Part shown: piece after piece, positions 2,910 through 59,472 of the stretch
How positions within the stretch are numbered: the first letter of the stretch is position 1
Layout of the letters: the number at the start of each line of letters is the position of its first letter
Made by a program: the position numbers and the translations under genes
DNA from: a virus
DNA length: 64,000 bases
Reading direction: 5' to 3' (one strand)
Virus record (IMG/VR): IMGVR_UViG_3300044911_000926
Location: 2,908 to 66,907 of that record
Notes under the pieces: model-generated
Databases searched by the model: none
What the model was told of the DNA's origin: nothing
What the model saw: the letters and a program-made list of their open reading frames with translations, nothing else

Positions 2910-3448
2910 TCTACACGACGACGAACACGGATCTCGTCAGGACCGATCATTCTGTACCATTCGTAGTGACCGACATAGACGATGCCAGAGTCGGTCGCAT
3001 TGGGCTGGTACTGGTACGCTTCGTCGAGTTCCCAGTTGTCCCAATGGTGGCTCTTTGATGCTCCGACCTGAAAGTAAAACTTACACCAACGAGTGCAGAA
3101 GCAACGTAGCTGGTAGTCGTTCTCGTAACCCATGTTGACCATGCGTTCGAGCAACTTGTCGAAGGCGTTGTACGCTTCGTGAATCTCGTCCATCGGCACT
3201 GGCTTCAAGAGGTCAAGCCAGATGTCGTAGGCGACGTGTTCGCTGTCGGCACAGATCAGGTGAGTTGGTCCGTACTCGAAACCGAACAGGAACATCATGC
3301 CGTCACCGATGGCATCATTGCCGTAGTATTCGACCTTGGTTAAGTGGTCACGATCCTTGTCGTAGTAAAAGAAGTCGAACTTTGCCATGCCGTTGATGAG
3401 GTCAACGACATCAGCAAGGTTGATGTCAGATGTATGCGTTTCTGTCAT
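2906..3448 (-). CDS. hypothetical protein
   Basis: ATG at 3448 (MTETHTSD...) after a GGAAG leader like neighbouring genes. Confidence 0.75.
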   Translation of the reverse strand: MTETHTSDINLADVVDLINGMAKFDFFYYDKDRDHLTKVEYYGNDAIGDGMMFLFGFEYGPTHLICADSEHVAYDIWLDLLKPVPMDEIHEAYNAFDKLLERMVNMGYENDYQLRCFCTRWCKFYFQVGASKSHHWDNWELDEAYQYQPNATDSGIVYVGHYEWYRMIGPDEIRVRRRVE

Positions 3449-3472
3449 AGCAATCTTCCAGGTTAAAGGGGT

Positions 3473-3533
3473 AAGTGAAACCAACTATGCCGCGAGACGC
3501 TGCTGCTGGGTCGCGGCGAGGCAGGGTCCACTC
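3473..3533 (-). ncRNA. AGCAGCAGC-loop hairpin, copy 4
   Basis: inner stem GCCGCGA/UCGCGGC, loop CCCAGCAGCAGCGUC, outer stem GAGUGGACC/GGUUUCACUU. Confidence 0.7.
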
Positions 3534-4170
3534 AACGAGGGGAACTGGGGTGAAGTCGGTCGCGGCGAGCCTTCCACAGAAGGCGTGCAAGGTCGTCACG
3601 CGGGATCTGTCCAGACTCGACCCTAATACTGACTCCGCTTCCGTCGTCGTAATACGGTTCGGTAGCGTACTTCAAGAACAGTTCTCGCAAGTCATCGTTG
3701 CTAACGTCATCGAGCAGCGATCTGGTCGATTCGTAGAGAGCGAAGTCATCGGAAAGGCGATCGCGGAATCCGGTGCATCCCCAACTATCCCACGACTGCT
3801 CAAATTCCTCCCACTCACGATTAGACCAATCTTGGTCGTCGAGTGCTGGGTAATTCTCCAGCGATCGAGCCATGTCATAGGCTGACTTGAGAGCCTTCTC
3901 ATCCTCTGGCGATACGATGATGATCTCGTACCAACCTGGTCCCCAATGACCGAATCGGTGGACTTCGACAGTCTCAGACTCGCCACCTAGACCGTCTAGG
4001 AACGAATGGAAATTGGACTCGTCTAACGGTCCACTGTCACGGGTTCTGCTGACTGGCATGACGAACCACTTGGAACGTTCCGTGTCCTCGTCGTCGATGT
4101 TGATGTTGCGATCAAAGGCGGTAGGGCTATGGTCGCCGTATCGCTCGAAGCAATCGTCGTACACTGACAT
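3532..4170 (-). CDS. conserved acidic phage hypothetical protein
   Basis: 212 aa; RTRDS..LDESNF...HRFGHWGPGWYE...LENYPALDD motif. Confidence 0.85.
   Translation of the reverse strand: MSVYDDCFERYGDHSPTAFDRNINIDDEDTERSKWFVMPVSRTRDSGPLDESNFHSFLDGLGGESETVEVHRFGHWGPGWYEIIIVSPEDEKALKSAYDMARSLENYPALDDQDWSNREWEEFEQSWDSWGCTGFRDRLSDDFALYESTRSLLDDVSNDDLRELFLKYATEPYYDDGSGVSIRVESGQIPRDDLARLLWKARRDRLHPSSPR
3535..3554 (-). promoter_or_regulatory. TTCAC-N5-TTCCCCTCGT motif (putative phage-sigma promoter)
   Basis: one of 7 exact copies, all co-oriented with downstream genes. Confidence 0.65.
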
Positions 4171-4180
4171 TGCAATTCTC

Positions 4181-4251
4181 CCAGGCTTGTGACTGGTTGC
4201 TCACATCGAGCAAGCCGCATTAAGCCCTGCACAGGCAAGGCTCACTCTGCG
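4181..4251 (-). ncRNA. twister ribozyme (P5-type), copy 2
   Basis: CGCA GA GUG AGCCUUGC/GCAGGGCU UAA UGCG GC UUGCUC/GAGCAA CCAG UCACAAGC CUGG; predicted cut 4222/4221. Confidence 0.92.
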
Positions 4252-4809
4252 TTAGGACTTCGGAGTGTAGATACACTCGTCGTTGTCTACTCGGTAGACA
4301 GGGTAAGGGCACTTGCCTTCCTCGAACCAGTCAGGGCCGAAGCAGTAAGCCTTGGCACCGTCATCACAAGGATTCTTGAGGTAACAGGCACCGGGAGCAC
4401 AGGGAGAGCAGAACTGTGCTCTGGTGTAGTAGATCGACTTGGTGATGAAGATGTCAGGACTATCGTAACCCTGCTCTGCCGTGATCTCCTCATCGTCAAC
4501 AAAGTGTGACTGAGGCTCATCGCCGTATGCGTACTCGCTCCCCATGTAGTGTTCACAGCGTTGGCAGGCGTAGTCTCGGTCGATCGTCCTGCGGTAGTCG
4601 TCGTAACTCTCGTGCTTTGACTCGTCGTACTCCACTGCATCACCGCCACAATTGGGACACGCTGGACTGCCGTAGAACCCTTCAGCAGACTCGTACCACG
4701 CACTGCCAACAGCATGGTGAGGGATGACACCGTATCGAATATCGGCGTCTCGGTCGATGTTTGACATACCCATGCCGTAGTCAATACCGCGATAATCAGT
4801 CTTGGACAT
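4252..4809 (-). CDS. Cys-rich (Zn-binding) phage hypothetical protein
   Basis: ATG 4809 with GGAG; CPNC, CQRC and CSPCAPGAC motifs. Confidence 0.8.
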   Translation of the reverse strand: MSKTDYRGIDYGMGMSNIDRDADIRYGVIPHHAVGSAWYESAEGFYGSPACPNCGGDAVEYDESKHESYDDYRRTIDRDYACQRCEHYMGSEYAYGDEPQSHFVDDEEITAEQGYDSPDIFITKSIYYTRAQFCSPCAPGACYLKNPCDDGAKAYCFGPDWFEEGKCPYPVYRVDNDECIYTPKS

Positions 4810-4837
4810 ACTAAAACTCCAGAACAAGGGAATGGAC

Positions 4838-4853
4838 GCGACCCCGGGGTCGC
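4838..4853. repeat. perfect palindrome GCGACCCCGGGGTCGC, copy 1
   Basis: exact 16-mer, 19 bp downstream of promoter-like motif 4873-4892. Confidence 0.95.
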
Positions 4854-4872
4854 ATTGAAAACCGGACACCAA

Positions 4873-4892
4873 ACGAGGGGAAACGGGGTGAA
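4873..4892 (-). promoter_or_regulatory. TTCAC-N5-TTCCCCTCGT motif
   Basis: exact copy, intergenic. Confidence 0.65.
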
Positions 4893-4899
4893 GTCGGCC

Positions 4900-5130: not shown

Positions 5131-5312
5131 TCTCCAGATGGCTCCACGAGCAGGATTTCTTCGTCACACTCTACTGGAGGAGAATTGAACAAGACTTCTC
5201 CAGATTCAAGCATTTCATTGACTTTTTCCCAAGCGTCATCGCCTGATTCGGCTTCGACAGCCACCCTCTTTGTGTAGCGATCGATCCTCTCAACTGTCAC
5301 GATGTACTGCAT
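5127..5312 (-). CDS. DpnD/PcfM-like small protein
   Basis: MQYIVTVERIDRYTKRVAVEAESGDDAWEKV. Confidence 0.7.
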   Translation of the reverse strand: MQYIVTVERIDRYTKRVAVEAESGDDAWEKVNEMLESGEVLFNSPPVECDEEILLVEPSGD

Positions 5313-5321
5313 AACCAATCT

Positions 5322-5384
5322 CCAGGCTTTGAACTGGCTAGCGAAGTGCTAGGCCGCATTACACCCCGAAGGGTGTCATCTGCG
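5322..5384 (-). ncRNA. twister ribozyme (P5-type), copy 3
   Basis: CGCA GA UGA CACCC-UUCG-GGGUG UAA UGCG GC CUAGC/GCUAG CCAG UUCAAAGC CUGG; T1 pseudoknot covaries (UGA/UCA); predicted cut 5361/5360. Confidence 0.92.
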
Positions 5385-5440
5385 TTTAGTTTCGTCGCAT
5401 GATCTACTCCATAAAACGAGGAAATTGATGTCATCTGCGT

Positions 5441-5752
5441 TCAACTACCAACACCAGTCCTTCGCTCAAGGTCCATCTGCTCCCACTTGCTTCCACACTC
5501 GATGCACATGGACAACGCTACGGCATAGCGATCGTCGTCGATTCCACAAGAAGCAACGCCGAACAGGTCTGCCAACTTGTGCGCCCAGAGGATGCCGACA
5601 GGGTGATTACAGATGTCATCCGTTGCGGTGACTCCAAGGAGCCTGAGTTCATCCATTGCAAAGACAAAACTACGGACAATGCCTAGCGGGTTACATGCGT
5701 CCTGGACATCGACTGCCTCTTTTGCAAGGTGTCCAAACTTATCATCTAACAT
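5441..5752 (-). CDS. hypothetical protein
   Basis: 103 aa, GGGAG RBS; AKEAVDVQDACNPLG motif. Confidence 0.8.
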   Translation of the reverse strand: MLDDKFGHLAKEAVDVQDACNPLGIVRSFVFAMDELRLLGVTATDDICNHPVGILWAHKLADLFGVASCGIDDDRYAVALSMCIECGSKWEQMDLERRTGVGS

Positions 5753-5796
5753 GAAATCTACTCCCGAAAACGAGGAACTCGAAAAACCGACACCAA

Positions 5797-5816
5797 ACGA
5801 GGGGAAACGGCGTGAA
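5797..5816 (-). promoter_or_regulatory. TTCAC-N5-TTCCCCTCGT motif
   Basis: exact copy, intergenic. Confidence 0.65.
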
Positions 5817-5879
5817 ACCGACCTCGGACAACACGCACGCCATCCCCGACGATACCAGCCTATAAAGACCGGGTATCAT

Positions 5880-6420
5880 CAGGTTGGCGATTGCTTGACT
5901 TCAATTGCGTTGTATCAGTGACTCAGGTAACTCGGGCTTATGCTACGGCTTTTTGCTGGAATCGTCTGTGGACCCGGACGCTGGCGTGCTTTACGAGATC
6001 AACTACTCGTTCGTTGCCGGGAAAAACTCCTGATGGAGAAGCCATATTTCACCTCTGTATTCGCCTAGCCCGTCTCGGTCGTGACCGATACTCTAGGCTT
6101 CCTTGACGGTGGGATTAACACCGCTCACTATCACTTTCCGGCTCTGCTTTCTCGGGTGCTACAGCCGGTCAACCGATCCCCGAAGGCTTTGTTATCACCT
6201 AGACAACGCAATTGTCGATTACTCGATCCGTGAAACGCTTACAGCCAAGTGATTGCTCACCTGGCTGTTGGCGTAGACTGTTGTGGCGGAACCCAACGCA
6301 CAACAAGATTCGGTTGATCGTTAAGAGTGTCATGAATTGGGTTCCTTTGCCGCCTTGTCTAAGGGCGACATTAACACTCTATCTACTGTCCCGAAGGAGT
6401 CAATAGGGAAGCGATGAAAA
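5880..6420 (-). ncRNA. large structured ncRNA, ROOL-like
   Basis: ~540 nt with no credible ORF; long-range helices 5902-5913/6203-6214 (12 bp) and 6169-6176/6310-6317 cross each other (pseudoknot); many local hairpins; size and architecture recall ROOL. Confidence 0.65.
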
Positions 6421-6450
6421 TCACCGATTGACACCTTGACGATGGAACCG
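6421..6450. repeat. duplicate of the 3' end of CDS 7074-7292
   Basis: 28/30 identical to 7074-7103 (RFHRQGVNR*). Confidence 0.9.
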
Positions 6451-6753
6451 TTAGGCGTCCTTGGCTTTGGATATCGCTTCGCCGACAGCTTCCAAGACCT
6501 TCGAGTCGCTGAATGGAGCAGGTTGCCCACCAAGCATCCACTTCTGCACCAGTTCACACGCTTCCAGAAGGTCTGGCGCTGCGGCGATCAGCCTAGCGTT
6601 TGCTTGTCGCTGCTCGTTTTCATCCTTGGCTTGAGGGTGACTGTTCAGTTCTGTCGTGCTGGCAATTTGGTATCCACTTGTCGTTTGAACGTGAAATCTT
6701 GGATTGGCTCCACGTCCGAGGTGAAACATCCAAGGTCCAGGTGTGTGTCTCAT
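6451..6753 (-). CDS. conserved phage protein (HTPGPW...ANARLIAAAPDLLEA family)
   Basis: motif widespread in phage early regions. Confidence 0.85.
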   Translation of the reverse strand: MRHTPGPWMFHLGRGANPRFHVQTTSGYQIASTTELNSHPQAKDENEQRQANARLIAAAPDLLEACELVQKWMLGGQPAPFSDSKVLEAVGEAISKAKDA

Positions 6754-6792
6754 TTAGCAATACTCCAATAAAAGGGTGAAACGGACGGGAAT

Positions 6793-6981
6793 CTAGCAAC
6801 CATAGCCCTGACAGGCACCAGTGCCGTTGTCTAGGCAGTATTGGCATTCGGCATACAGGACCGACTCACCATCCTTGGTCGTCAGTTCAACCTTATCAAT
6901 GGCTGACTCAGACGATTCGGCTTCAACAGTGACAGTCTCCAAGAACCGTTCGACACGTTCGACGGTGACTTGATAACGCAT
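6793..6981 (-). CDS. DpnD/PcfM-like small protein
   Basis: MRYQVTVERVERFLETVTVEAESSESAIDKV; GGAG RBS. Confidence 0.7.
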   Translation of the reverse strand: MRYQVTVERVERFLETVTVEAESSESAIDKVELTTKDGESVLYAECQYCLDNGTGACQGYGC

Positions 6982-7008
6982 AGCGATACTCCAGTAGAGG
7001 GGTATAAA

Positions 7009-7072
7009 ACGGGCTTGCAACCGTCTGCCGTAGGGCAGGCCGCATTAACGCCCCGGAGGGCGCTGCTCTGCG
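7009..7072 (-). ncRNA. twister ribozyme (P5-type), copy 4
   Basis: CGCA GA GCA GCGCCC/GGGCGU UAA UGCG GC CUGCC/GGCAG ACGG UUGCAAGC CCGU; T1 covaries (GCA/UGC); predicted cut 7047/7046. Confidence 0.92.
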
Positions 7073-7073
7073 A

Positions 7074-7292
7074 TTACCGATTGACACCCTGACGATGGAA
7101 CCGATCGTAAAGATCGTCCCACCTCACTGACAGGAAGCTATCCAGAACTCTGGCAACGCTATCCACCACAGCTTCAGTGTCGAAGTCATCCCCAAGTCGA
7201 GACTCATGCTTGGCGTGAGACATCATCTCGCAGATCATTGCGAGTGCATTCTGTTCCCTTTCGCTGAACTGAATCTTACTGTCACCTGACAT
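7074..7292 (-). CDS. hypothetical protein
   Basis: 72 aa, TGGAGTATCGCTATG leader shared with other early genes. Confidence 0.75.
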   Translation of the reverse strand: MSGDSKIQFSEREQNALAMICEMMSHAKHESRLGDDFDTEAVVDSVARVLDSFLSVRWDDLYDRFHRQGVNR

Positions 7293-7380
7293 AGCGATAC
7301 TCCAAAAGTAGTGTACGGACTGTGGGAAAAACTACCCATTTTTATCCACAACAGCACAAAAGTAGTGTACGAACAAACAG

Positions 7381-7396
7381 GCGACCCCGGGGTCGC
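7381..7396. repeat. perfect palindrome GCGACCCCGGGGTCGC, copy 2
   Basis: exact; 10 bp downstream of promoter-like motif 7407-7426. Confidence 0.95.
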
Positions 7397-7406
7397 ATCC
7401 AACCTA

Positions 7407-7426
7407 ACGAGGGGAACGACCGTGAA
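7407..7426 (-). promoter_or_regulatory. TTCAC-N5-TTCCCCTCGT motif
   Basis: exact copy. Confidence 0.65.
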
Positions 7427-7582
7427 ATCGACCGTCTCTGGCAGCACTGGTCAATCCCATCCCCATCCCCTCCGTGACGGGTTATTCGCGACTAGGGTAA
7501 AATCTAGTCGCGAATACCTATCGCTAGACTATCCGCACGATACCCTCTACGGGGTCGAAAAACGGGTCTGCTACGCTTCCAA

Positions 7583-7602
7583 ACGAGGGGAAACGGTGTG
7601 AA
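7583..7602 (-). promoter_or_regulatory. TTCAC-N5-TTCCCCTCGT motif
   Basis: exact copy. Confidence 0.65.
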
Positions 7603-7793
7603 ACCCACCCGGATCGATCGGAAGCGTAGGCGGGGCTAATTTGGGGGCTAAGAATCGAACCCGATAGAATCGGTGGGGAGAATACTGGTGACAAGCTTGA
7701 CACCAGAACGGCGCGAAGCGTAGAGGCTTCGGGTGATAATCGATCGGGAATAGATGGGGCCGGGTTGGCCTAGGATCGATCGGAATAGAAACG

Positions 7794-7827
7794 AAAAAAC
7801 CCCATGAGGAATTGACCTCATGGGGTT
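7794..7827 (-). terminator. intrinsic terminator
   Basis: 12-bp stem AACCCCATGAGG/CCTCATGGGGTT followed by a T-run on the minus strand. Confidence 0.85.
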
Positions 7828-8201: not shown

Positions 8202-8255
8202 TTTAAAAACCTTCCAAATTGAGAGAGAAACAAGAAACGGACAAAAGCGGACACC

Positions 8256-9002
8256 TTACGAGGGGAATAGCACTGCCAGAGATGAATTTACTAGCACTTC
8301 AGCAGCAATGCGCGATGGGTAACGGTAAAGCGCCCGTTCCGATATTCCGAGGGATTCTGCAACGATGGGGCGTGTCGCGCTTGTGGACATTGCTAGGGCG
8401 ATATATGCCGATCGTGCGGACACAATGCCCGACGATATGAGCCTTTCCGCTTCGTCATCGGGGTCGACATAATCCGGACGATCGTCGGGCATCGATTCGC
8501 GAAGCATAACTTGTTTACGATCAATTCGGGCGCCGTCAATCAACGTTCGGTGACCATTTCTCAGATCGTCCAAAATGTCGCGAACAGCTTGCCTAGCGCC
8601 TTGATGGGGGTCGACTAGGGCATAACGCTCCGGGTTGCTCAGAATACGTTCTAGCGCTTCTTGTGGCATATCTTCGGGGTCGAACCATGGCGAGCGACGT
8701 TGTAGCCTATCGACGATTCGCGGGTGCATGGCGATACGTCTCGCCGATTCGTGAAATGCGAGAAGATAGTCGCACACTTCATCAGATTCGTCGGGGATAG
8801 GATCGACACTTGCGGGTGGATCGTATTCGTAGGGGACAATAGGAAACGGTATCCCGTAAACCGTTGATAGCAGATCAATGTCGTATGCTTCGGGGTGTTG
8901 GATAAGACCGGTGAAACCGTCACGTTGACACTGTCGGGGGGTTCGTTGTGTAGCAATGGCGACGGGTTCGCCTAGGGTGTCTTTTAGTTCGATTGTTTGC
9001 AT
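8256..9002 (-). CDS. putative ECF-like RNA polymerase sigma factor
   Basis: region-2-like FDPEDMPQEALERIL and C-terminal HTH TRPIVAESLGISERALYRY. Confidence 0.6.
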   Translation of the reverse strand: MQTIELKDTLGEPVAIATQRTPRQCQRDGFTGLIQHPEAYDIDLLSTVYGIPFPIVPYEYDPPASVDPIPDESDEVCDYLLAFHESARRIAMHPRIVDRLQRRSPWFDPEDMPQEALERILSNPERYALVDPHQGARQAVRDILDDLRNGHRTLIDGARIDRKQVMLRESMPDDRPDYVDPDDEAERLISSGIVSARSAYIALAMSTSATRPIVAESLGISERALYRYPSRIAAEVLVNSSLAVLFPS

Positions 9003-12087: not shown

Positions 12088-12339
12088 TTGAACATTCATA
12101 CAGTTTACGTCCACACGAGATGTCCATTTGCTCCGGTGTGGGACTATTACAAGGTTGTCGTCAGGACTCCCGACTTCCTGAAATGCGAGGATCTTCAGTC
12201 GATCTGCGACAAAGTTCGAGGACTTGAGATGACTCAAGAGAATGTCATGAGGGAGATCAGGAGCAAACTGAATAGGTCTTGCAGGGTCACTGTGACTGGA
12301 AGGCACGGATCGAACGGAAGGCTTGAAATTACTGGATAG
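12088..12339 (+). CDS. small QueF-like/T-fold protein
   Basis: TTG start after GGAG; RCP...Y...TQE...GRH pattern; directly upstream of the TGT-like gene. Confidence 0.5.
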   Translation: MNIHTVYVHTRCPFAPVWDYYKVVVRTPDFLKCEDLQSICDKVRGLEMTQENVMREIRSKLNRSCRVTVTGRHGSNGRLEITG

Positions 12340-13108
12340 TAAATTGATCAGATACCACGGGACACCAATAACGCCATCTTGCTCTGCCGTTCAGATATTG
12401 AGCGGCAGGCATGGTCTGGTGAGTTTTGAACACCCAGACCAGATAGGGATGGTTGCTGAAATCTGTCAGTCCTTCGTTCTTGACAACGGTGCTTTTTCTC
12501 ACTGGAAGCAGGGGATGGGGGTGATTGACATCGACGCTTACGAAGAATGGATAGAAGAATGGAGCCTGCATCCAGGTTTTGATTGGTGCTTGATACCGGA
12601 CGTTATTGATGGAAGCGAGTTAGATAACATTGATTTAATAAAAGACTGGATTAGCAGAAACGCTTCAATAAAGCACCAGAGCGTTCCAGTGTGGCATCTT
12701 CATGAATCTCTTGGCTGGCTTCATGAAATGGCATTTAATCTTGGTCTAAAAAGGATAGCGATTGGATCTTCTGGAGACTACAGCGTCCCAGGGTCTGACG
12801 AGTGGGAGTTTAGGATGAGCGAGGTCATGGATGTAATTTGTGATGCAGAAGGCAGGCCAAGAGTAAAGGTCCACGGACTAAGGATGATGGACCCGAAGTT
12901 GTTCAGTAGATACCCATTTTCAAGCGTCGATTCTTGCAATGTTGCAAGGAACATTGGGATAGACAAGCAGTGGGAGAGTTTTAAGTATGCCGGGCAGATA
13001 AGCAAGGCGGTGCGAGGTGACATCATTGCGCACAGAATTGAATCTCACGCGGCAGCTTCTGTCTGGGTTAAGTGCCACCAAGAAAGCCAAGGGCTTTTAT
13101 TTGAGTAA
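12323..13108 (+). CDS. DpdA/tRNA-guanine transglycosylase-like protein
   Basis: LDNGAFS, PDVIDG, PVWH, IAIG, HGL and SVDS motifs of the TGT/DpdA superfamily. Confidence 0.7.
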   Translation: MKLLDSKLIRYHGTPITPSCSAVQILSGRHGLVSFEHPDQIGMVAEICQSFVLDNGAFSHWKQGMGVIDIDAYEEWIEEWSLHPGFDWCLIPDVIDGSELDNIDLIKDWISRNASIKHQSVPVWHLHESLGWLHEMAFNLGLKRIAIGSSGDYSVPGSDEWEFRMSEVMDVICDAEGRPRVKVHGLRMMDPKLFSRYPFSSVDSCNVARNIGIDKQWESFKYAGQISKAVRGDIIAHRIESHAAASVWVKCHQESQGLLFE

Positions 13109-59405: not shown

Positions 59406-59410
59406 CCGGC

Positions 59411-59430
59411 TTCACGCCGTTTCCCCTCGT
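59411..59430 (+). promoter_or_regulatory. TTCAC-N5-TTCCCCTCGT motif (plus orientation)
   Basis: exact copy upstream of the helicase operon. Confidence 0.65.
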
Positions 59431-59472
59431 TGGTTGCCTCGAACAACTTCAACACGTCCTCGGGAGGGACAC

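Follow-up and report, generated by a model that had tools for sequence, protein, structure and literature searches.

The virus record IMGVR_UViG_3300044911_000926 of IMG/VR, 66.9 kilobases (kb) in length, carries genes for a terminase, a portal protein, a major head protein, a serine-recombinase-type integrase and a helicase, and its bases 2908–66907 make up the 64-kb stretch of DNA analysed here (the window). The small genes at 1–9 kb of the window lie on the minus strand, among them a gene of 100 amino acids (aa) that belongs to phrog_1273 (unknown function; 6451..6753) and a 103-aa gene without a family (5441..5752). The stop codon of the former and the ATG of the latter are separated by a gap of 698 nucleotides (nt; 5753–6450), which holds the subject of this report, a structured cassette of about 577 nt on the minus strand (5846..6422). 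Since the genes and the self-cleaving ribozymes of this region are all on the minus strand, any RNA made from the gap would be read from 6422 to 5846. With moderate confidence, the stretch is interpreted here as a self-contained cassette for a structured non-coding RNA (ncRNA) of about 580 nt, which would be made early in infection and act in trans.

As an earlier note on this DNA had maintained, the gap is free of genes, and no credible open reading frame (ORF) was found between 5753 and 6450 in any frame. No ORF exceeds 45 aa on the minus or 71 aa on the plus strand, and each of the six frames contains 6–13 stop codons of all three kinds, so that recoding of a single stop opens no frame. The 10 small ORFs tested gave no Pfam matches (eight ORFs at E≤0.1, two at E≤0.01) and, against PHROGs, nothing beyond two matches at E 0.08–0.1. 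One of them, a 44-aa ORF on the minus strand, carries non-synonymous double changes in an IMG/VR relative (L007) and, as read from the listed indels, a net +1 indel in a metagenome (X20). The stretch 5846–6422 is non-coding; the limits given earlier, 5880–6420, fall somewhat short of the conserved unit, which extends rather over ~5846–6422.

The relative L007 was found through the 103-aa protein (92 % amino-acid identity), and its positions 3331–4000 match window positions 6422–5753 at 95.8 % identity. The stretch or part of it is furthermore listed for 20 public runs, which leaves 18 runs from 17 studies, mostly of lake water, when two possible sources are set aside. Four runs were examined in detail (X6, X13, X19 and X20, the last two from one wastewater study), and in all four the stretch is spanned by single contigs. 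Among the listed runs that hold the stretch, no RNA sample is on record; X19 and X20 are labelled as RNA-Seq complementary DNA and were rated as probably DNA.

The copies differ in their surroundings. L007 lacks the phrog_1273 gene, and its copy follows directly behind the stop codon of a DpnD/PcfM-like gene. In X6 and X13, the contigs resemble the window up to 6422, and in X19 up to 6450; beyond this boundary, X6 continues in the same way as L007, X13 continues into other DNA, and X19 contains a 31-nt repeat (6423–6450) followed by other DNA. At the low end of the X19 contig there is no continuation into the 103-aa gene, which was not found behind the cassette in that contig. The segment from ~5756/5846 to 6422 is a discrete module with four upstream neighbours (those in the window, in L007 and X6, in X13 and in X19) and at least two downstream neighbours. 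That the neighbours change while the boundaries and the sequence of the cassette stay the same argues for an RNA in its own right and not for a regulator of one gene.

On the minus strand, 5880–6420 is predicted to fold with a z score of −4.19 (0 of 100 shuffles as good), and on the plus strand with −2.11 (3 of 100 shuffles as good); for the 5′ domain alone (6215–6422), the score is −6.13 on the minus versus −2.36 on the plus strand. According to the prediction, the RNA would begin with a 5′ domain made up of stable hairpins, of which one is capped by UUCG, another by GCAA and a third has a stem that evolves fast; then would come a core of 313 nt, with a long-range helix of 12 bp closing it, and, finally, a G-U-rich 3′ hairpin. 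Both tetraloops, C(UUCG)G and GCAA, belong to the minus-strand fold. The first hairpin (6383..6406), which bears the C(UUCG)G cap, has a z score of only −1.29 when folded alone and does not stand out from its shuffles; it lies within the 42 nt of the 5′ end (6381–6422) that show no difference between the window and L007 and no listed variant in X19, X13 or X6. A variable linker (6370..6379) with five substitutions common to L007, X19, X20 and X13 leads to a hairpin at 6288..6345 (arms 6336–6345 and 6288–6297), which has a different complementary stem in the relatives and a folding energy of −22.7 kcal/mol on the minus strand (z −3.48), compared with −19.2 kcal/mol on the plus strand (z −1.18). 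The GCAA-capped hairpin (6235..6274), with 12+4 bp and a loop of the GNRA type, has a folding energy of −26.3 kcal/mol (z −6.93); it is invariant among the listed variants and hence shows no covariation.

The core domain (5902..6214) is closed by pairing of 6203–6214 with 5902–5913. Inside it, the fold predicts a hairpin at 6130..6177, whose inner part corresponds to 6138–6168, two hairpins at 6063..6127 (6104–6127 and 6063–6098, the latter approximately 6064–6097), in which no listed variant differs, and a branched sub-domain with three hairpins (5940..6052). The 3′ hairpin (5846..5882) comprises about 17 pairs and is supported by the fold as well as by variants that keep wobble pairs; the segment 5840–5890 has a folding energy of −27.1 kcal/mol (z −5.48) when read as the minus strand, as against −13.3 kcal/mol (z −1.19) for the plus strand. 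The minimum-energy fold of the minus strand includes three of the hairpins proposed earlier, namely those at 6064–6097, 6138–6168 and 6241–6268, the last as part of the GCAA-capped hairpin.

That pairing itself has been maintained is indicated by the differences between copies. Within the cassette, the window and L007 differ at 22 positions, 14 of which are located in the stem arms 6336–6345/6288–6297, five in the linker 6370–6379, two in a loop (6324 and 6325) and one in the core (6167). The 14 changes amount to the replacement of a whole stem: the window arms form 10 standard pairs and the L007 arms form 11, one register off, whereas placed in each other's register they retain only 6/11 and 6/10 pairs. 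Further versions of this stem, with indels, are present in X20 and in a second X6 contig, which makes at least two beyond those of the window and L007. The 12-bp helix spanning 300 nt, which had been noticed before any comparison was available, is also borne out. It extends to 20 nt at 85 % complementarity and is part of the minimum-energy fold; of 300 mononucleotide shuffles, 6 contained a perfect inverted repeat of at least 12 nt. In X19 and X20, it carries two double compensatory changes, at 5903 and 6213 (A-U to G-C on the RNA) and at 5905 and 6211 (U-A to A-U on the RNA). These belong to the 10 variant positions listed for the core and the 3′ hairpin (5846–6280) across the four runs, and two or more compensated pairs arose from 10 random substitutions in 0.0235 % of 200,000 simulations. 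The aligned copies, therefore, indicate that two helices keep pairing through compensatory change.

Three further positions change on one side of a pair only and keep a standard pair via G-U on the minus-strand RNA alone: 6167 (C-G to U-G), found in L007 and in all four runs examined, 5878 (U-G to C-G) and 5873 (C-G to U-G). Position 5891 is unpaired and 5893 falls in a weakly predicted spot. Taken together, both the predicted fold stability and the wobble pairing speak for the operon strand, which supplies what the earlier ncRNA proposal had left out: that proposal gave no strand, and the stretch is indeed non-coding and has conserved structure of the RNA type, for which the evidence is on the minus strand.

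Several observations nevertheless weigh against a selected, trans-acting RNA. Only two of ~20 predicted helices are informative, since core identity among the known copies is nowhere below ~95 % and most predicted helices never vary; the inner core (5914–6202), where only 6167 and 6010 differ among the listed variants, is a prediction only, and the core fold hardly surpasses its shuffles, to the same degree on the minus (z −2.16) and plus (z −2.44) strands. The change at 6010 in X19 and X20 disrupts the A-U pair that closes a hairpin of 5 bp, and the pairs that the window fold predicts for the linker 6370–6379 are broken in the variants. Because X19 and X20 come from one study, a single lineage may account for the two compensated pairs, and the three changes compatible with wobble pairing are transitions, a class in which chance alone preserves pairing on one strand in about half of the cases. 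Beyond the listed variants, the contigs that cover the cassette may hold up to 17 further differences, which are potentially pair-breaking. Two of the helices suggested at the outset fared less well. The 8-bp helix said to cross the long-range one, with arms at 6169..6176 and 6310–6317, exists as a perfect complement; yet inverted repeats of at least 8 bp occur in 253 of 300 shuffles, so its presence is at chance level, and no listed variant touches it. The hairpin at 6324–6380 can pair, but it lies outside the minimum-energy fold and has three of seven pairs broken in L007. To these points are added a mosaic of identities along the region, the narrow spread of the cassette and the want of any indication, in the data examined, of a binding partner for an RNA acting in trans.

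The mosaic is marked: between the window and L007, identity is 99.8 % in the core and 100 % in a twister ribozyme and a 63-aa gene, and drops to 86.5 % in the 103-aa gene and 83.5 % in part of the next gene, so that the high identity of the core may be the result of recent exchange and is no proof of selection. The spread was followed by several routes, although such homologue scans may leave out records close to the window. A blastn search of 50,697 phage records gave no match to the stretch, and a DNA search of five related virus records did not find it; of 87 loci that surround relatives of the flanking genes, L007 alone contained it. A 20-mer scan of IMG/VR returned L007's record only, the same type of scan on metagenome contigs yielded five chance matches in unrelated genes, and a 24-mer scan of one genome per species yielded none. 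Searches starting from the ribozymes gave the same picture. A twister pattern identified 96 loci in IMG/VR, 80 of which were listed, and among these loci nhmmer found the stretch in L007's record only; model R1, applied to 49 whole twister-carrying records, and model R2, applied to 86 loci, each gave one match, which was the control, L007's own record. The failure to find a homologue in the 48 other twister-carrying records, in the 86 loci and in the pattern scans fits a young, lineage-specific element. Within the databases searched, the family appears confined to one phage lineage. The earlier note had taken a PVC host to be probable; when one genome per prokaryote species was scanned with a terminase pattern, no prophage relative came to light.

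Such a distribution could also be expected of non-functional mosaic filler, that is, of a decayed gene or recombination spacer with incidental hairpins and with an identity due to recent exchange. The restriction to the records of the window and L007 among the IMG/VR records reached, the mosaic identity profile and a core fold z score of only about −2 are all compatible with this explanation. It accounts poorly, however, for two double compensatory changes 300 nt apart and for the exchange of a complete stem, for a 5′ domain with a z score of −6.13 and two classic stable loops (UUCG and GCAA), and for boundaries that are the same in four genomic contexts. Filler is accordingly regarded as rather unlikely, and a cassette encoding a structured RNA is preferred.

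The ribozymes of the region raise the question of whether such an RNA would have a life of its own. Four Twister-P5 ribozymes were identified in the window at Rfam gathering thresholds, all on the minus strand (366–430, 4181–4251, 5322–5384 and 7009–7072). A fifth is located in the same virus record upstream of the window (G000:C1:1199–1253), and the record of L007 (G006) contains seven, in each record on one strand; a distant relative (G004, 39 % terminase identity) has none. Two copies of Twister-P5 (RF02684; cut-off 37.6 bits) flank the cassette, one upstream (7009–7072, 47.5 bits) and one downstream (5322–5384, 42.5 bits). The suggestion that the RNA is released on a fragment bounded by twisters is correct as to the flanks, but the fragment they enclose is ~1.7 kb long and comprises three protein genes in addition to the cassette (~1.3 kb and two genes in L007), so that the twisters would not free the folded RNA alone. 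A hidden twister at the 5′ end of the cassette was considered and ruled out by alignment with the four twisters of the window.

These circumstances speak for a cis-acting part of a messenger RNA, namely an extended structured region, at the 3′ end or between cistrons, by which a ribozyme-cut fragment is protected or timed, for example through a block to 3′ exonucleases or by holding the fragment ends together, and which has no independent existence. In keeping with it, the cassette shares a fragment between two Twister-P5 copies with two or three genes and lies at the 3′ end of a sub-unit, before a promoter-like repeat; it also has no intrinsic terminator of its own, and its only promoter match is at chance level (6 sites found versus 6.4 expected from shuffles). 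On the other hand, 580 nt with a long-range helix far exceed what a stabiliser needs, the genes upstream and downstream both differ among carriers, which means that the element is not tied to one message, and the other twister-bounded fragments of the operon contain no comparable element. A role in cis is, therefore, considered unlikely, although it is the alternative to which we give most weight, and an RNA acting in trans is retained as the preferred interpretation.

The promoter match just mentioned is a sigma-70-like site at 6403–6376, which overlaps the 5′ hairpin at 6383–6406. It would give an RNA of ~520 nt, and in this respect it would suit a DNA-replication element, either an origin or a structured pre-primer transcribed from its own promoter, comparable with RNA II of the ColE1 system. 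The G-rich stretch that follows the 3′ hairpin and the cassette-like mobility would be compatible with an origin module. Against this stand the absence of iterons, of internal direct repeats and of an AT-rich stretch (the GC content, 0.50–0.53, is like that of the surroundings), the chance level of the promoter match, the distance of ~54 kb to the helicase gene of the window and the wobble-dependent hairpins, which indicate RNA rather than DNA; nor is there any sign of priming. A function in replication is thus very unlikely.

Transcription of the cassette is more readily envisaged as part of the leftward operon. Downstream of it, at 5781..5828 on the minus strand, lies a repeat resembling a promoter or leader; its invariant core is TTCCCCTCGT, and seven copies of this repeat were aligned. 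The repeat is ~30–48 nt long and occurs at 3531–3561, 4869–4899, 5793–5823, 7403–7433, 7579–7609 and 8243–8267 on the minus strand and at 59407–59431 on the plus strand, in all seven cases upstream of genes. Several copies are followed by a GC-rich palindromic hairpin, GCGACCCCGGGGTCGC (4833–4853 and 7381–7401). The repeat may act as a promoter specific to the phage or as a nut-like site, and its positions suggest that it marks the starts of transcription sub-units. A strong intrinsic terminator with a 12-bp stem and a T-run is present on the minus strand at 7827–7798, with two TTCCCCTCGT copies just after it; by its position inside the leftward gene array, this predicted terminator splits the array into at least two transcription units. 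Early transcription of the cassette would presumably begin with the operon near 7430–7600, or possibly at the sigma-70-like site within the cassette, which is, as stated, a chance-level match, and the RNA would close a sub-unit at its 3′ end, directly ahead of the next TTCCCCTCGT repeat.

The immediate neighbourhood contains several other elements. A leader with a Shine-Dalgarno-like GGGAG precedes the ATG of the 103-aa gene (5753..5782, minus strand) and resembles the sequence at 5402–5428, as a repeat. On the other side, between the phrog_1273 gene and the cassette, lies a 31-nt direct repeat (6420..6450, minus strand), a copy of 7073–7103 with 94 % identity that is missing ahead of the cassette in L007 and present in X19. 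Both copies encode the C-terminal peptide RFHRQGVNR followed by a stop codon; the copy at 7073 is directly followed by a twister, and that at 6420 by the RNA cassette. The latter (6450–6421) is in frame right behind the TAA of the phrog_1273 gene and thus has the appearance of a remnant 3′ end, left behind when recombination replaced a gene. A motif combining a ribosome-binding site with a start codon, CTGGAGTATTGCTATG and variants of it, is found in seven minus-strand copies (842–860, 3443–3461, 4165–4183, 4804–4822, 6750–6768, 6976–6994 and 7287–7305). It suggests that the true start of the DpnD/PcfM-like gene is at 6981, in which case this gene does not overlap the twister, and that the ORF 4252..4872 starts near 4809. 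Elsewhere in the window, a 60-nt repeat with a hairpin occurs at 870–929, 1650–1709 and 3475–3534, with 97 % identity between the first two copies, beside which there is a duplicated gene segment (928–980 and 1711–1763). The plus strand encodes a phage-borne homologue of queuine tRNA-ribosyltransferase at 12323–13108 (phrog_887, E 7e-59).

If the cassette does produce an RNA acting in trans, this RNA might engage a factor of the host or the phage early in infection, as a scaffold or a decoy. Two simple modes of action found no support in the sequence: CsrB-like sponge motifs are not enriched (7 GGA versus 10.5 expected in the stretch), and complementarity to possible antisense targets in the rest of the window is at the level of chance (best E 0.45). 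The cassette moves among the early genes of freshwater and wastewater phages within a ribozyme-punctuated operon, and it may thus serve as a test case for the role of self-cleaving ribozymes in phage operons; it would also be a compact target for structure probing and cryo-electron microscopy. Should a deeper alignment fail to back the fold, its value would drop to that of a well-delimited mosaic spacer.

With respect to its family, the RNA is most likely previously undescribed, where "undescribed" rests on Rfam 15, the literature searches not having been aimed at this sequence. The earlier note had labelled it ROOL-like, but covariance-model searches gave this label no support. Neither the ROOL model (RF03087; 574 positions, cut-off 99.1 bits) nor the GOLLD model (RF02032; gathering score 150 bits) matched at E≤10 anywhere in the 66.9-kb record; for ROOL, the control genomes were likewise silent. 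Scans with the full Rfam 15 library, by which the twisters were detected, were also run, and permissive scans (E≤10) of 5300–7100 and of 5740–6460 revealed only twisters and a sub-threshold match to group-II-D1D4-7 (RF02012). The latter concerns the GCAA-capped hairpin (6219–6298, minus strand) and reaches 24.2 bits against a cut-off of 34, with an E value of 0.006 on 721 nt and ~80 of 151 model positions filled. A group II intron was rejected as an explanation: the match is below the cut-off and covers one hairpin, and no other intron model of Rfam matches, including Intron_gpII, which we take to be the model of the catalytic domain V/VI; indeed, at E≤10 the stretch has no match to any further Rfam family. 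Moreover, as the upstream neighbour differs in four contexts, the cassette interrupts no host gene.

Large RNAs that are elaborately folded and have no known job are rare, and the few from phages, ROOL and GOLLD, build RNA-only cages, according to PMC12286853; with the cassette, this small set would grow by another, unrelated RNA of comparable size. By analogy, the cassette could be the founding member of a new class that forms RNA-only particles as ROOL and GOLLD do, being made early, released from a transcript that twisters have cut and assembled through its exposed loops into a scaffold or decoy that helps in host takeover or evasion. The 5′-OH and cyclic-phosphate ends left by twister cleavage could even be ligated into a circle. 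We regard this reading as quite doubtful.

Comparison with the known families shows how far the likeness goes. ROOL and GOLLD are RNAs of phages and prophages, often encoded near islands of transfer RNA (tRNA) genes, and ROOL forms an RNA-only octameric cage, as described in PMC12286853. Like ROOL, the cassette is phage-borne, free of ORFs, rich in hairpins and ~570–580 nt long (577 nt, against 574 positions of the ROOL model), and in both cases the function is unknown. These similarities could be taken to indicate a very divergent ROOL or GOLLD RNA. However, the models remained silent on the whole record and, with permissive filters, on the 721 nt around the cassette; ARAGORN detected no tRNA gene in the 64-kb window, whereas proximity to tRNA islands is frequent for both families in the text cited; and the cassette is confined to one narrow phage lineage. 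As judged by sequence and structure models, such kinship is refuted, and it is, overall, extremely unlikely. The cage of ROOL is a homo-octamer in which conserved kissing loops join the subunits; what is known here of the cassette comes from sequence. With GOLLD, which is often longer than 800 nt and combines a variable 5′ part with a conserved remainder (same source), the cassette shares its nature as a large, phage-borne, structured RNA of unknown function and this division into a variable 5′ part and a conserved remainder; it differs in its smaller size and in having no model match and no tRNA nearby. The likeness to group II introns is limited to the GCAA-capped hairpin with its weak match to RF02012. 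Finally, the Cellulophaga crAss-like phage phi14:2 produces early, abundant, long non-coding intergenic RNAs of unknown function between g004 and g005 and between g005 and g006 (bioRxiv 10.1101/2020.03.07.982082). Transcripts were observed there, whereas the cassette is known here from predicted structure, and the resemblance is one of description; what the two have in common are long intergenic stretches in the early region of a phage.

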